Shown here: piece after piece, positions 12,854 to 24,841 of the stretch
Layout: every line of letters begins with the position of its first letter
Position numbering within the stretch: the stretch's first letter is position 1
Origin: a virus
Lineage: Duplodnaviria; Heunggongvirae; Uroviricota; Caudoviricetes
Reading direction: 5' to 3' (one strand)
Length of the DNA: 64,000 bases
Virus record (IMG/VR): IMGVR_UViG_3300046820_001896
Notes under the pieces: model-generated
Database searches by the model: none
The model's input: the letters and a program-made list of their open reading frames with translations, nothing else
What the model was told of the DNA's origin: nothing
Translations under genes and position numbers: made by a program

Positions 12854-13363
12854 ATGAAAACGCACATTTTAGGCAATGGTCCTTCCAATATATTATATGA
12901 ACCAAGCGATGGATACGTAATCGGTTGTAATGTACAAACCCATCCAGTTGATATATCAATTGCTGTTGATATAAAACCATTCCATTTGTACATGGCAAAT
13001 AGGATGATTTTTCAAGGTAAACCTATCATCACTTCTCAATATGCTATGGATGGAATTAAACATAAAGACATTGAGAAAGAACTAGACATCATTTATAAGT
13101 TACCTTTTTTAGAAAAATATATGAGTGCAGGTCATATCGCTGCAAAATGGGCAATTGATAATGGATACACAGAAATTCATCTATGGGGATTTGACTCAAT
13201 TTGGTCAGATAGCCAAGAAACAAAAACTGACATACTAATTCCTAGAGATAGACGGCAACACGACTTACCTATCCATTGGAGAGAAAAATGGCAACAATTT
13301 AAAACATACAACATAATCGTGCATAACACAATAGAAGGCACACAACTGAAAGACTTAATATGA
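12854..13363 (+). CDS. putative glycosyltransferase-like protein (GNGPS motif; CstII/DUF115-like)
   Basis: N-terminal HILGNGPSN and later MSAGHIAAKWAIDNGYTEIHLWGFDS parallel the IIAGNGPSL and ITSGVYMCAVAIALGYKEIYLSGIDF motifs of Campylobacter CstII-type transferases. Recalled from memory; the protein is short (169 aa). Confidence 0.4.
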   Translation: MKTHILGNGPSNILYEPSDGYVIGCNVQTHPVDISIAVDIKPFHLYMANRMIFQGKPIITSQYAMDGIKHKDIEKELDIIYKLPFLEKYMSAGHIAAKWAIDNGYTEIHLWGFDSIWSDSQETKTDILIPRDRRQHDLPIHWREKWQQFKTYNIIVHNTIEGTQLKDLI

Positions 13364-13638
13364 ACAAGAACCAAATACAAGAGATTGATTTCGATTTCGG
13401 GTTTACTGCTGTCGATGAGGAAGAACTTGAAGCGGTACAAACAGTCACTGCACAAGTAGAAGCAACAAGCGGGGAAGTAGAGACACTTAAAGAAAAGTTG
13501 AAGACGCTACGTGCATGTATCGAACCACTACTAAAGAATCTGGAAGCAAATCCTGAGAAAGCATACATCCACTGGCCAGATCGTACAAGCAAGGTTAAGG
13601 CATTTAGGAGTAAATTAGACTCGATACAAAAGTTCTAA
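13360..13638 (+). CDS. hypothetical acidic coiled-coil protein (92 aa)
   Basis: ATGA overlap with the upstream gene. Confidence 0.6.
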   Translation: MNKNQIQEIDFDFGFTAVDEEELEAVQTVTAQVEATSGEVETLKEKLKTLRACIEPLLKNLEANPEKAYIHWPDRTSKVKAFRSKLDSIQKF

Positions 13639-13680
13639 TTTCACCTGGTGAAATGCACCACATCCAAGTCCCTCCGTGCA

Positions 13681-13705
13681 AGCCAATGATTTCATTGGCT
13701 TTTTC
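13681..13705 (+). terminator. rho-independent terminator
   Basis: agccaatg-attt-cattggct followed by ttttt. Confidence 0.7.
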
Positions 13706-13741
13706 TTGCTGAAAAAAAAGTGAAAATATTTCGCCCAGGCT

Positions 13742-13771
13742 ATGTACAAACTGCAGGAAACGCTGTATAAT
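13742..13771 (+). promoter_or_regulatory. early-type promoter, copy 3
   Basis: tgtaca 13743-13748, N17, tataat 13766-13771. Confidence 0.6.
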
Positions 13772-13802
13772 GGTTACATAAATTGAAAAAGCGAGGTAAA
13801 TT

Positions 13803-14150
13803 ATGAAATACACATTAGACGAAGGCATCTCAAAAGCTGTACAACTTATGCAAGATAGTTACATTAATTTGTACAAAGCTCGCGCTGATGACAATGCTGC
13901 ACGCAAAGTTTTTGCTGCAGAACAAGTAGAAAAGTTTATCAAAACTACACGTATTGAAAAAGGTCGTAACTATGTAAAAATTGCCGCTGATGGTAGCGTT
14001 AAATTTTTTGTCGTAGCAAAAGCAACAAAAGGTTTTAATGTCGGTGATATTTTGAAAGCTGCATCGTGGCGTGCACCAGCAACAAACTTTGCACGCGGTA
14101 ACGTTATCGATGGAGATTTTAGTCAAATTACATGGACAGGAGCATACTAA
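13803..14150 (+). CDS. conserved phage hypothetical protein (115 aa)
   Basis: RBS gaggt. KGRNYVKI...GDILKAASWRAPATNFARGN resembles a widespread phage family (from memory). Confidence 0.65.
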   Translation: MKYTLDEGISKAVQLMQDSYINLYKARADDNAARKVFAAEQVEKFIKTTRIEKGRNYVKIAADGSVKFFVVAKATKGFNVGDILKAASWRAPATNFARGNVIDGDFSQITWTGAY

Positions 14151-14302
14151 TGATTCGAGTAGTAATTGGTTTTCTGATAGTTTTTGGTGCAGTTGGTGGC
14201 ATGGACAGTGGTACTGATGCGCAATTACCTGCACAGATCGCTCTGGCGGTTACAGGATTGGCATTGATGTACTTTGGTACTAAAAAAATAAATGCGAATT
14301 AA
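14150..14302 (+). CDS. small two-TM membrane protein (50 aa, below the ORF-track cutoff)
   Basis: TAATG overlap. Hand translation: MIRVVIGFLIVFGAVGGMDSGTDAQLPAQIALAVTGLALMYFGTKKINAN. Confidence 0.5.
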   Translation: MIRVVIGFLIVFGAVGGMDSGTDAQLPAQIALAVTGLALMYFGTKKINAN

Positions 14303-14314
14303 TTCGCAAAAAGC

Positions 14315-14344
14315 ATGTACAAACAAGAAAAAGTGTGGTATAAT
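14315..14344 (+). promoter_or_regulatory. early-type promoter, copy 4
   Basis: tgtaca 14316-14321, N17, tgtggtataat ending at 14344. Confidence 0.65.
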
Positions 14345-14349
14345 TAATC

Positions 14350-14508
14350 ATGACAAAACGAAAGGTAACTCGCAAAGCAAATCCGATAGCGAAAGATTTG
14401 CGTACACCGAAGTACCGCATGCGTGTTGTCAAAAGCAAGAAAGCTTACACACGTAAGCAACGTAGTGAAATCATTAACATTGAAATGGAGTTAAATCATG
14501 GGTCGTAA
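14350..14508 (+). CDS. ArfA-like small basic protein (52 aa; possible alternative ribosome-rescue factor)
   Basis: Hand translation MTKRKVTRKANPIAKDLRTPKYRMRVVKSKKAYTRKQRSEIINIEMELNHGS. The core P-x-(F/Y)-R-x-R-V-x-K-x-K-K...Y-x-R-K parallels E. coli ArfA [21 protein letters not shown]. Starts 6 nt after promoter copy 4. Confidence 0.45.
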   Translation: MTKRKVTRKANPIAKDLRTPKYRMRVVKSKKAYTRKQRSEIINIEMELNHGS

Positions 14509-14983
14509 AGCACGTGTTTATCAAGCAGAATTTGTTCAAAAGTTCGAAGACAAGTTCTATTCAGAATTCCCTCAAGTAAAGAGTGGTGGTACATTCCTTT
14601 GGAAAGATGCAGTTAAAGTCATGCGTCAACTTGGTTTGAATCCACGTAACGGTAACGAATATCCGTTTTACTTCTTTACTAACAAAGTTTCGAAAGGCGT
14701 TTACAAAATGCCAACGAAACCAGCATTGATCGCTGGTACACCTGCAGCAACTGCAGCAAGCATCGTTAAATCGAAGCAACCAAAGGTAGCGAAGACGCCT
14801 AAAGCGACAGTAGCTCGCGTGTCCGCACCGAAAGTCACCACAGCTGTGACACGTATTAAGAAGTCAGATAAGTCCGATTCAGATATCGGCACTGGTGGAT
14901 TCGACAACGATGTATCATTCGATGACGTAGCATCTCTGCGCGGCGAATTTGGTCTCGGCGAATTCCGTAACACACTAGACTAA
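14498..14983 (+). CDS. hypothetical protein (161 aa)
   Basis: RBS ggag. 11-nt overlap with the mini-ORF upstream. Confidence 0.65.
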   Translation: MGRKARVYQAEFVQKFEDKFYSEFPQVKSGGTFLWKDAVKVMRQLGLNPRNGNEYPFYFFTNKVSKGVYKMPTKPALIAGTPAATAASIVKSKQPKVAKTPKATVARVSAPKVTTAVTRIKKSDKSDSDIGTGGFDNDVSFDDVASLRGEFGLGEFRNTLD

Positions 14984-15082
14984 GCTCCTTTCCTTTCGCT
15001 TAGACTGACCACCACATTCGGGAGAATCTGGCTATATAGGTCGCCGCATTAGAGTAAGCGGCTCCATTTATTGAAAGGCTAT

Positions 15083-15259
15083 ATGATTAGACTTTGGTTG
15101 GCATTTTTCGTAATATTTTTTCTGTTTTATGTTGGTATTCCTACATTCCATAAACTCACTGGTCGTGAGAAGTGGGCTGTAACGAAGATCGCATTGTACA
15201 GTTTTGTGTGCTCTTTGCTTGCAATCGGCGCAATGATTTTGATCGTGATTTTATTTTAA
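15083..15259 (+). CDS. small two-TM membrane protein (58 aa)
   Basis: ATG at 15083 with RBS aaagg (the ORF track uses TTG at 15071). MIRLWLAFFVIFFLFYVGIP... Confidence 0.5.
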   Translation: MIRLWLAFFVIFFLFYVGIPTFHKLTGREKWAVTKIALYSFVCSLLAIGAMILIVILF

Positions 15260-15267
15260 GGATTTAT

Positions 15268-16065
15268 ATGAAGACATCTATGAAACTCTTGGCTATCGCA
15301 ATGGCCGTCGCTGCACTCCCAGCATGTACACGTATTGAGACTGGCGAAGTCGGTGTACGAGTTGGTTTCGATAAACAAGTTCAACAAGGCGAACTCTTGC
15401 CTGGTTCGTTCAATCAAGTGTTGATTGGTGATGTGCTTACATTCCCAATCAAAGATGTGAACGTTAAGCTCGAAGATATGACACCTGTTGCAAAAGACAA
15501 TAGCACAATGAAAGACTTCGATGCTGTTGTAATCTATAACATCAATCAAGCACAAGTCGCTGAGCTCTATAGCCAAAAGAGTCAAGCATTCCACGCTCGT
15601 CATAACGGCGACATCTATCTGATGTACAACTATATCGTTCAAACTACTCGTAATGCTATTTACAAAGAAGCACGTAAATACGAAGCATTAGACATGGCTG
15701 ACAATCGTCAAGCAATGGAACAAGCAATCAAAGAACAGATCCAGAAATCACTCGCTGAAGAAAAGCTTGATGGTAGTTTGATGATCGGTCAAGTGTTGAT
15801 TCGTAACATCGTTCCTGCTGATTCAGTCGTTGAGAGTGCAAACGCATTGGTTCGTGCAAAGAACGAACTAAAGCAAAAAGAAGTTGAAGTGCGTACAGCT
15901 AAAATGGAAGCTGAACGTATGCAAGCATTGTCCAATCAAGGTGCAAGTTCTATCGCATACATGAATGCTCAAGCTGCATTGAACATCTCTGAAGGTATTA
16001 AGAACGGTAAAGTGCAAACCATCGTTGTACCTAGCAACATGACTGGCTTGATGATTGGAAAATGA
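15268..16065 (+). CDS. SPFH/band-7 (prohibitin-like) domain lipoprotein
   Basis: The ATG at 15268 (RBS aagga) gives MKTSMKLLAIAMAVAALPAC with the lipobox LPAC. TGEVGVRVGFDK...PGSFNQVL and a long Ala/Glu-rich C-terminal helix are typical of SPFH proteins. Confidence 0.7.
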   Translation: MKTSMKLLAIAMAVAALPACTRIETGEVGVRVGFDKQVQQGELLPGSFNQVLIGDVLTFPIKDVNVKLEDMTPVAKDNSTMKDFDAVVIYNINQAQVAELYSQKSQAFHARHNGDIYLMYNYIVQTTRNAIYKEARKYEALDMADNRQAMEQAIKEQIQKSLAEEKLDGSLMIGQVLIRNIVPADSVVESANALVRAKNELKQKEVEVRTAKMEAERMQALSNQGASSIAYMNAQAALNISEGIKNGKVQTIVVPSNMTGLMIGK

Positions 16066-16310
16066 TGATTATTAATAAAGATACACTCCGCAAAGAACTT
16101 AAAGAAGGTGTGAAAACGATCACCTTCACTAAGACTGATGGCACTCAACGTGTATTGAAGTGCACTCTACAAGAATTTGTGTTGCCACAAGTAGATGCTA
16201 CTAAATTAGTAACTGCCAAAAAGCAGAACGATGAAGCACTTGCAGTGTGGGACATTGAGAACGCAGGGTGGAGATCATTTAGGTATGATTCAATCATCAG
16301 CGTCGTATAA
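16062..16310 (+). CDS. conserved phage small protein (82 aa)
   Basis: ATGA overlap. ITFTKTDGTQRVLKCTL...WDIENAGWRSFRYDSI resembles a common phage small-protein family (from memory). Confidence 0.6.
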   Translation: MMIINKDTLRKELKEGVKTITFTKTDGTQRVLKCTLQEFVLPQVDATKLVTAKKQNDEALAVWDIENAGWRSFRYDSIISVV

Positions 16311-24138: not shown

Positions 24139-24332
24139 AATCATTCCTTCATACAGAAGACATAGATCGCATCAAGGCACTGATGGAAGCCATTGATTAT
24201 GATGGTAACTTTGAGATCGAGATCGATGAATCCTCAGGCATAGGAAGGACAGTCATTGTACATGTACCATATTCAGTCAATTCATTGCGTGGTACATTTT
24301 CTTATATTATTTCAAATGTGGAGAACTGGTAA
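24132..24332 (+). CDS. hypothetical protein (66 aa)
   Basis: Short overlap with neighbours on both sides. Confidence 0.5.
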   Translation: MVKSFLHTEDIDRIKALMEAIDYDGNFEIEIDESSGIGRTVIVHVPYSVNSLRGTFSYIISNVENW

Positions 24333-24841
24333 TGAGTAACTATGAAAAACATGCATTGATGGAATTCCGTGCTGCAGGATGGATAGATGAGAATGGTAAT
24401 TATATCGATGAGATGCAAGAGATGATTTGTCGTCATGTACTTGCATTACTTGATGTATTCGATGGTGAGGGACATAGTGGATCCTCTGCACCGTATGCTA
24501 TCAATTTATTCTCCAAACTTGCTAAGTTTGATCCTGTTGTGCCATTGACTGGTGAAGATTGGGAATGGACTGAGGTAAGCGAACGAATGGGTAGCAAGTG
24601 TTGGCAAAACAAACGATGCGGTAAGGTGTTCAAGGATGAGGATGGACGAGCATACGATATCGATGGGAAAGTTTTTTGGGAATGGAGTGGTACGAAGGAA
24701 GATCCATATAAGTCGCACTACACATGCCGAGAATCTCGTGTGTATGTCACCTTCCCATATACTCCATCGACTGAGTATGTGTATCGATACTCTGATGCCA
24801 CTCCACCTGCCCCACCACAAACAGAGCAAGGGTTACTATGA
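24332..24841 (+). CDS. hypothetical protein (169 aa)
   Basis: TAATG overlap, long ORF. Confidence 0.6.
   Translation: MSNYEKHALMEFRAAGWIDENGNYIDEMQEMICRHVLALLDVFDGEGHSGSSAPYAINLFSKLAKFDPVVPLTGEDWEWTEVSERMGSKCWQNKRCGKVFKDEDGRAYDIDGKVFWEWSGTKEDPYKSHYTCRESRVYVTFPYTPSTEYVYRYSDATPPAPPQTEQGLL

Follow-up and report, generated by a model that had tools for sequence, protein, structure and literature searches.

A 52-codon gene of a novel tailed phage, a candidate minimal member of the ArfA ribosome-rescue superfamily with a predicted leaderless mRNA

The stretch of DNA analyzed here, hereafter the window, comprises 64,000 nucleotides (nt) of a phage of the Caudoviricetes (IMG/VR record IMGVR_UViG_3300046820_001896), and our subject is a small open reading frame (ORF) on its plus strand at positions 14350-14508. 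Read directly, the sequence gives an ATG at 14350, a TAA at 14506-14508 and the translation MTKRKVTRKANPIAKDLRTPKYRMRVVKSKKAYTRKQRSEIINIEMELNHGS, in agreement with the 52 codons reported in an earlier first-pass annotation of the same DNA, which likened the product to the alternative ribosome-rescue factor ArfA. The ORF cannot start earlier because an in-frame TAA lies at 14344-14346, and 14350 is taken as the start because M24, which falls inside the conserved core, is the only other methionine before the core ends. That core spans residues 11-36 (NPIAKDLRTPKYRMRVVKSKKAYTRK; 14380-14457, plus strand), as delimited by hhalign alignments, per-column comparison and the structural roles described for ArfA (PMC5378476). 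It is followed by a C-terminal tail (QRSEIINIEMELNHGS; 14458-14505, plus strand) that is unconserved in the family alignment and, after R38, is acidic and hydrophobic with no KH motif. Its homologues, an excess of synonymous changes and a profile-profile match to ArfA mark the ORF as an ArfA-like gene of the DUF7230/phrog_20887 family.

A database search with the ORF returned 73 homologues at E≤0.01, most of them about 45-52 amino acids long. Residues A14, D16, L17, R18, P20, K21, Y22 and R25 are invariant across the homologues, and the core of the family is near-invariant as RNPIAKDLRTPKYRMRVVxSKxxYxRK. The gene lies in the equivalent position on the syntenic metagenomic contigs L005-L010, which are T4-like and carry gp59, gp32 and a late-transcription coactivator downstream of it. 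When the 29-codon cores of these relatives are compared with that of the window, 7-12 synonymous codon changes are seen as against 1-7 non-synonymous ones, and the stretch NP[IV]AKDLRTPKYRMRVV is essentially identical throughout. The ORF is a real, conserved gene, and its core is under purifying selection.

Directly upstream, where the first-pass annotation had placed an early promoter, a consensus scan located a sigma-70-type promoter with an extended -10 element (14316-14344, plus strand). It consists of a -35 hexamer TGTACA (14316-14321), a 17-nt spacer with TG at 14336-14337, and a -10 hexamer TATAAT (14339-14344). The arrangement TGTACA-N17-TATAAT occurs nine times in the window, always on the plus strand, against 1.36 copies expected by chance, which argues that it is a genuine promoter class of this phage; its host-like consensus would fit early expression of the ORF. 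The promoter is kept with equal spacing in the relatives L005, L007, L008 and L010.

Between the -10 hexamer and the ATG there are only 5 nt (TAATC, 14345-14349, plus strand, read directly from the sequence), with no Shine-Dalgarno sequence. This distance is 5-6 nt in all five clade members (the window, L005, L007, L008 and L010): in L007 and L008, T[GT]TACA-N17-TATAAT is followed by 5 nt before the ATG, and in L010 the gap is 6 nt. While the sequence flanking the promoter has diverged in the relatives, the promoter-to-ATG arrangement is kept, with a pyrimidine before the ATG each time. The eight other promoter copies in the window have leaders of 19-45 nt with AGGA (AAGGA) or GGAG. The sigma-70 holoenzyme usually starts transcription about 7 nt downstream of the -10 hexamer, with a preference for a purine after a pyrimidine. 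Given this spacing, the 5-nt gap and the lack of a Shine-Dalgarno sequence, transcription is predicted to start at or adjacent to the A of the ATG and to yield a leaderless mRNA. Outside the window clade the gene either has a normal Shine-Dalgarno sequence, as in Acinetobacter phage Ac42, or lies inside an operon (contigs L013 and L016), so the leaderless arrangement appears to be specific to the window clade.

The next gene encodes 161 amino acids (14498-14983, plus strand) and is probably co-transcribed with the ORF. Its ATG at 14498 gives the 11-nt overlap with the ORF that the first pass had reported, and its GGAG lies at 14487-14490. The need to keep this ribosome-binding site and start codon places a constraint on the last ORF codons; the GGAG...ATGGGTCGTAA stretch shows no differences among L005, L007 and L008. 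The 161-residue product has no Pfam or PHROG match. We considered it as a conserved partner of the ORF and rejected it, since it has no recognizable family and bears no relation to the genes found after ArfA-like genes in other phage clades; the upstream neighbors were uninformative as to a partner gene. The overlap, the position of the downstream Shine-Dalgarno sequence inside the ORF and the single promoter serving both genes could also mean that the ORF acts mainly as a regulatory leader, through translational coupling to the 161-residue gene and not through its peptide. We regard this as very improbable, given that the core is near-invariant across about 2,900 proteins in unrelated contexts with different downstream partners or none, that changes in the core are mainly synonymous, and that in L010 the two genes do not overlap.

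The family to which the ORF belongs has no assigned function. The ORF is matched by phrog_20887 (E=9.4e-7) and, below the cut-off of 27 bits, by DUF7230 (PF23876; 15.8 bits, E=0.015), which matches 59 of the 74 nearest homologues. A profile built from the homologues retrieves 2,894 proteins, most of them labeled PF23876, and most DUF7230/phrog_20887 members lie in early-gene regions of T4-like genomes. Only three Pfam families match the ORF at all: DUF7230, DUF7152 and ArfA. The search against the ArfA profile that the first pass had proposed as a check (PF03889) gave 11.8 bits (E=0.17; ORF residues 18-39 against profile positions 19-43), below the gathering threshold of 25.5, and only three of the 74 closest homologues are matched by this profile. 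The ORF is therefore not a canonical ArfA.

As remote homology, the resemblance described in the first pass does hold. For the ArfA side we assembled 149 diverse proteins from a search among 50%-identity representatives, of which 111 were trimmed to the core and aligned with E. coli ArfA to give 112 sequences; an earlier homologue search was set aside because it contained only near-identical enterobacterial proteins and was unsuited to building a profile. Core sets of 44-112 sequences were used in the profile-profile comparisons. Alignment by hhalign of 156 phage-family sequences against the 112 ArfA cores gave a probability of 90.8% (P=1.2e-6) and a score of 30.9 over 35 columns, compared with a mean of 8.4 (standard deviation 1.8, maximum 18.5) for 200 composition-preserving column shuffles and 10.3 for a reversed-alignment control. 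A second run on independent alignments gave a probability of 87.4% (E=3.7e-6). The register reproduces, column for column, the motif parallel drawn in the first-pass annotation, including a three-residue gap at G35-K36-G37, and aligns the ORF core with E. coli ArfA residues 14-42, which make up the decoding-center helix, the strand in the A site and the first part of the mRNA-tunnel tail.

Natural sequences bridge the two families, several of them by joining the phage-type AKDLRTPKY to the KKGKGSY/F of ArfA. An unannotated ORF of Roseobacter phage CRP-212, excerpted as MRQKNPVAKILRTPRYRQRKVMPKKGKGSYKR... and MRQKNPVAKILRTPRYRQRKVMPKKGKGSYKRNTKH..., scores 38.7 bits with our own ArfA hidden Markov model (HMM) and 40.3 bits with the phage-family HMM, and despite its phage-type motif it passes the Pfam ArfA cut-off at 33.3 bits. 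The metagenomic protein P0206 (70 amino acids) is a tandem of NLIAKDLRTTKYKPRIVKPKKGKGSFKRKKK and NPIAKDLRTPKYKQRSVKSKKIYNRKKK, one repeat of the KGKGS type and one with the window-type SKKxYxRK, matching two separate paralogue types of SAR11; its repeat 1 scores 28.5 bits with our ArfA HMM and 40.2 bits with the phage-family HMM. A protein of Pseudoalteromonas phage J2-1 passes both Pfam cut-offs (ArfA 41.3 bits, DUF7230 28.6 bits), and a 35-residue SAR11 protein with the phage-type motif passes that of ArfA at 31.6 bits. The profile-profile match and these bridging sequences indicate that the likeness of the ORF to ArfA is one of distant homology and not of chance, and that DUF7230 and the window clade together are a divergent branch of the ArfA superfamily.

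Could the motif instead reflect convergence, in a small basic nucleic-acid-binding or ribosome-associated peptide that is unrelated to ArfA and merely rich in lysine and arginine? The single-sequence matches to the curated profiles are weak (E=0.17 for ArfA, E=0.015 for DUF7230), and type-Z uS14 of Bacillus and Listeria is similar to the ORF over a comparably short stretch at its N-terminus, so that motifs of this kind can evidently recur. We nevertheless judge convergence to be improbable, as the shuffles never exceeded 18.5 against the observed 30.9, at least 10 conserved positions match in order and spacing, and bridging sequences clear the curated thresholds of the two families. The uS14 likeness itself (IAKxxRTPK[FY]...YTR; PDB 7nhn_o and 3j9w_AN, SMIAKQKRTPKYAVQAYTRC, against ORF residues 9-36, NPIAKDLRTPKYRMRVV..AYTRK) was considered and set aside as probable chance: in the family profile search of PDB it has E=0.71, in hhalign (probability 20.6) it scores at the upper edge of the shuffle range, and it is confined to Bacillus and Listeria, not being conserved in uS14 of S. 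aureus or E. faecalis.

Members of the family are also found in cellular genomes. A scan for KDLRTPKY across one genome per bacterial species gave 27 loci. In SAR86 single-cell genomes the gene lies on contigs of 182-322 kb, always just after tatC, with ubiB upstream and an acetyl-CoA synthetase gene downstream; in Pelagibacteraceae (SAR11) it follows polA or lies beside a response-regulator gene, pfkB and nth. These contexts are chromosomal and of a housekeeping nature. The SAR11 and SAR86 mini-genes encode 35-44 amino acids, for example MKKKNLIAKDLRTPKYRSRIVKPKKGKGSFKRKKR (the 31.6-bit match to Pfam ArfA), and lie at L034:2998-3105, L035:2992-3114, L038:1424-1534, L019:~3001-3105 and L020/L021/L027:~3001-3135. 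That the location in the chromosome is conserved points to a cellular function and lowers the likelihood of a phage-specific poison. ArfA has been placed only in gammaproteobacteria, some betaproteobacteria and a few species of the Bacillus subtilis group (PMC8012679; PMC11633108), and a 2024 survey found arfA in none of 2,376 alphaproteobacterial genomes (PMC11633108). Since the surveys place no arfA in alphaproteobacteria, the SAR11 genes appear to have been overlooked. An ArfA-like ORF is also present on a 554-kb contig of an Alcanivorax metagenome-assembled genome (MAG), where it adjoins a gene for a DarT1-associated NADAR antitoxin (L044:3612-4316, minus strand, E=1.9e-87); this locus may be a mobile or defense island and not core chromosome. 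A near-identical peptide occurs in a Micavibrio MAG (L042).

To establish which ArfA residues are retained, two alignments were mapped column by column, with structural roles taken from Demo et al. 2017 (PMC5378476) and Goralski et al. 2018 (PMC6299226); residues are given below as ArfA/ORF. N14/N11, I16/I13 and L20/L17 are kept, as is P23/P20, which in ArfA packs against A1492/A1493 (PMC5378476). An aromatic residue is kept at F25/Y22, the position that in ArfA sits in the V198/F217 pocket of release factor 2 (RF2) (PMC5378476; PMC6299226), and R26/R23, R28/R25 and V29/V26, which in ArfA belong to the strand that pairs with the RF2 beta-sheet, are also retained. The ORF segment P20-K-Y22-R23-M-R25-V26 thus appears equivalent in sequence to the A-site segment P23-x-F25-R-x-R-V of ArfA, and the family shows no variation at its P, Y and R25. 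Within the mRNA-tunnel tail the matches are K31/K28, K33/K30, K34/K31, Y39/Y33, R41/R35, K42/K36 and K44/R38. ArfA E30 aligns to V27.

The regulatory arrangement of ArfA is not retained. ArfA is made from a non-stop mRNA by way of an internal hairpin or RNase III site before the stop codon, and its level is controlled by transfer-messenger RNA (tmRNA) (PMC8012679). The ORF lacks this arrangement: it has a normal TAA and its 3' end overlaps the next gene. No ArfA-like regulatory hairpin or RNase III site was found in it, the only structure being a 6-bp hairpin at 14443-14458 (fold z-score -1.76). With a normal stop codon and no such internal hairpin, expression of the ORF is predicted not to be coupled to tmRNA activity. 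The SAR11 and SAR86 members likewise have ordinary stop codons and no internal terminator.

We put at roughly 0.55 the probability that the ORF is a phage-borne minimal member of the ArfA superfamily acting in release-factor-dependent ribosome rescue. The homology, the retention of just that half which touches the ribosome and the RF2 beta-sheet, and the chromosomal members favor this reading, and further support comes from the precedent of annotated phage ArfA genes, the repeated promoter motif and the conserved promoter-to-ATG arrangement. Expression would come early in infection and be driven by the host-type promoter, with the mRNA probably leaderless. Where a ribosome has stalled at the 3' end of a truncated mRNA, the basic segment K28-R38 of the peptide would enter the empty mRNA tunnel, and P20-K-Y22-R-M-R25-V would lie in the vacant A site; in ArfA, the corresponding strand is paired to the RF2 domain 2 beta-sheet (PMC5378476). 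A host class-I release factor recruited by the peptide would then bring about peptide release and recycling of the ribosome, with neither tmRNA tagging nor the tmRNA-gated expression of ArfA. In this way a T4-like phage could regain, for its own translation, ribosomes trapped on degraded host mRNAs or on cleaved ones. The first-pass suggestion that such a factor would help when host tmRNA is inactivated, or when defense nucleases cleave mRNA, is speculative.

A number of findings weigh against rescue activity, beginning with the low ArfA profile score described above. An NCBIfam search with the ORF gave no match, and E. coli ArfA was not retrieved when the ORF-family profile was run against PDB sequences. 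The ORF lacks ArfA's N-terminal minidomain (residues 2-16: H6, G9, I11, D13), the ordering of which is coupled to RF2 opening (PMC5378476); just 10 residues (MTKRKVTRKA) precede N11, and they do not show the H/G/I/D pattern. ArfA A18 (99% alanine) aligns to K15 (95% lysine in the ORF family), and in ArfA the A18T substitution abolishes RF2 activation while ribosome binding and RF2 recruitment remain (PMC5378476). In ArfA a hydrophobic patch of L19, L24 and F25 binds W319 of the RF2 switch loop (PMC5378476); the RF2 contacts L19 and L24 are replaced by D16 (100% aspartate) and K21 (100% lysine), leaving the aromatic alone. G35-K36-G37 of the KGKGS segment is deleted, and single residues of this segment have been reported to be non-essential in ArfA (PMC6299226). 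Some 70% of proteins in the wider phage family carry the KH motif, in place of which the window clade has R-S (H45 aligns to S39), and the tail turns acidic past R38. ArfA truncated after M40 loses its affinity for the ribosome. Because the RF2-activating features of ArfA are absent or replaced by invariant charged residues, we can only infer rescue activity.

An AlphaFold2 model of the peptide, made with an alignment, is of low confidence (predicted local distance difference test score 67, predicted template-modeling score 0.24), which also counts against the rescue reading, and was too weak for a fold search. With the same low confidence it places one helix, a short one, at residues 12-17, the position of the decoding-center helix in ArfA, and another at residues 38-50 in the C-terminal tail. 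The peptide is probably disordered off the ribosome; the model fits this and settles nothing.

The losses described above raise the main alternative, that the peptide binds the A site and tunnel in the manner of ArfA and does not activate a release factor, as with ArfA(A18T). Such a variant might deny tmRNA-SmpB or host ArfA access to stalled ribosomes and so leave phage products untagged, or it might park idle ribosomes or recruit another partner. The minidomain and A18 are both gone, and invariant D and K stand in place of L19 and L24; binding and RF2 recruitment are separable from activation (PMC5378476; PMC8012679); and the strong conservation of the charged D16 and K21 suggests a specific new contact. 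We hold this to be rather unlikely, since the RF2-contacting strand and its aromatic are kept (Y22, R23, R25, V26), and since a constitutive blocker of rescue would be costly in the streamlined SAR11 and SAR86 housekeeping contexts, where a hibernation-type role is still conceivable. In addition, ArfT and BrfA activate release factors without the N-terminal fold of ArfA (PMC6299226; PMC8012679).

The comparison with ArfT (Francisella) and BrfA (Bacillus; reported only from that genus) is useful in this respect, as both work on the principle proposed for the rescue role of the ORF product, in which an empty tunnel is recognized by a short basic peptide that brings in a class-I release factor. 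ArfT has no hydrophobic residue at the F25 position and still activates RF1 or RF2 (PMC6299226; PMC8012679), so the exact release-factor contacts of ArfA are not the sole solution. No sequence relationship of the ORF to ArfT or BrfA was detected in the comparisons made here. An ArfT assignment was rejected: proteins of the ArfT family are described as made up of one to eight charged alpha-helical repeats (PMC6514570), and the ORF has Pfam matches only to the three families named above.

ArfA itself (YhdL; PF03889) of the gamma- and betaproteobacteria is, like the ORF product, a small, basic and probably disordered peptide, and the two share N-x-[ILV]-x(3)-[LV]-x(2)-P-x-[FY]-R-x-R-[VI]-x-K-x-K-K...Y-x-R-K in order and spacing. 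They differ in that the ORF is phage-encoded, apparently leaderless and without the H-x-K/R-G-x-I-x-D minidomain. DUF7230/phrog_20887 (for example Ac42p003) is the ORF's own family and has the same core, although the window clade differs from other members in its N-terminus (MTKRKVTRKA as opposed to MYNKxxKPR), in lacking KH, and in having its own promoter and leaderless arrangement. The annotated phage ArfA proteins (RXM g10, HTVC027P gp30, J2-1 and Bambus) are likewise ArfA-family members, carried by lytic phages that are often large and tRNA-rich. Most of these pass the ArfA profile, however, and have an N-terminal H-x-RG and usually KGKGS; their function is taken from annotation.

These comparisons lead us to put forward, tentatively, a broader proposal that we see as possible and somewhat doubtful as a whole: that there is an unrecognised minimal ArfA subfamily of 35-52 amino acids, common among T4-like phages and others and chromosomal in SAR11 and SAR86, which acts on empty-tunnel ribosomes by a mechanism other than that of ArfA and is expressed from a leaderless mRNA in the window clade. 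Its members may share the core [NL]-x-[IV]-A-K-D-L-R-T-P-K-Y and may be filed as DUF7230 or left unannotated. They may activate a release factor without the minidomain through charged contacts, possibly with promiscuity between RF1 and RF2, or may compete with trans-translation.

By tblastn the family is present in 86 GenBank phages, of which 63 are Acinetobacter phages; those examined have T4-like genomes of about 165 kb with the ArfA-like gene near rIIA, and gp003 of Acinetobacter phage Ac42 is a clear DUF7230 member (51.6 bits). Other phages with the family include Sinorhizobium phages of the phiM12 type and phages of Agrobacterium, Rhizobium, Roseobacter and Pelagibacter. More canonical ArfA proteins are encoded by Salmonella phage Arash, Pseudomonas phage pf16, Pseudoalteromonas phage J2-1, Brevundimonas phage Bambus, Citromicrobium phage RXM, Caulobacter phage Cr30 and others. 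The annotation of such genes is uneven: gp99c of Arash (L012:1417-1641) is mislabeled 'ribosomal protein L2', the pf16 ORF (L003:1495-1638) is unannotated and overlaps a coding sequence annotated on the opposite strand, and those of CRP-212 (L001:1489-1614) and CRP-13 (L002:~1489-1614) lie out of frame inside larger annotated coding sequences. Citromicrobium phage RXM g10 is known as ArfA by annotation only (PMC8953757), and pelagiphage HTVC027P gp30, also annotated as ArfA, is highly expressed at 3 h post infection and again at 12-15 h (PMC12753301). Our literature search found no mention of DUF7230, and phage ArfA appeared in it just as annotation, in RXM and HTVC027P.

The window phage, which is T4-like and uncultured, is novel. 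A megablast search of positions 13000-16000 against GenBank phages gave no match, and its gp32 is at most 56% identical to gp32 of T4-like phages of cyanobacteria, Methylophilales and Pelagibacter. A small gene of the WYL_2 (Sm-like SH3) type is separated from the ArfA-like gene by a few genes, on its downstream side, in the window (16062-16310, plus strand) and on two DUF7230-type T4-like contigs (L013:4369-4668 and L016:4345-4641); this recurrence suggests a loose synteny of the early region.

Elsewhere in the window, the tRNA array and GroES gene to which the first-pass annotation referred are both present. The array occupies 53-2971, with 12 genes identified by ARAGORN and 14 by Rfam, and tRNAs were the only matches in the Rfam scan of the window. 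The two tRNA-like sequences missed by ARAGORN lie at 1044-1116 and 2901-2971, the latter barely above threshold (29.9 bits). The tRNA-Ile(tat) predicted by ARAGORN at 1207-1301 (plus strand) is unusually long at 95 nt and may have an intron or a long arm. The GroES-like gene (785-1042, plus strand; Cpn10, E=7.5e-10) lies between tRNA genes, and the array is followed by genes for an HNH endonuclease (3011-3568), a 2OG-Fe(II) oxygenase (3587-4162) and a metallophosphoesterase (4225-5157). A 169-residue protein encoded at 24332-24841 (plus strand) matches Tad3, an inhibitor of type I Thoeris (PF25185, E=2.7e-36), and its gene is likely an anti-defense gene.

The general idea of a phage-borne ArfA is not new, because phage ArfA genes have already been annotated. 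The new points are that DUF7230 is linked to ArfA, that the architecture is minimal and lacks RF2-activating elements, that the promoter arrangement implies a leaderless mRNA, and that SAR11 and SAR86 have chromosomal members. DUF7230/phrog_20887, a large family of about 2,900 proteins in this search and of unknown function, would thereby be tied to a well-understood rescue mechanism. The link also suggests that many phages may bring their own sensor of empty-tunnel ribosomes; T4-like phages are known to degrade host mRNA, and ribosomes can be expected to become stranded on the truncated messages. The conserved promoter-to-ATG arrangement offers a concrete case for the predicted leaderless expression of a phage translation factor. 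The subfamily can also be viewed as a natural experiment in which the ribosome-sensing half of ArfA has been kept and most of the RF2-activating parts discarded, and it bears on how little peptide suffices for release that is independent of a stop codon. If the assignment is true, the SAR11 and SAR86 members would widen the range of ArfA-type proteins beyond the beta- and gammaproteobacteria and into the alphaproteobacteria.

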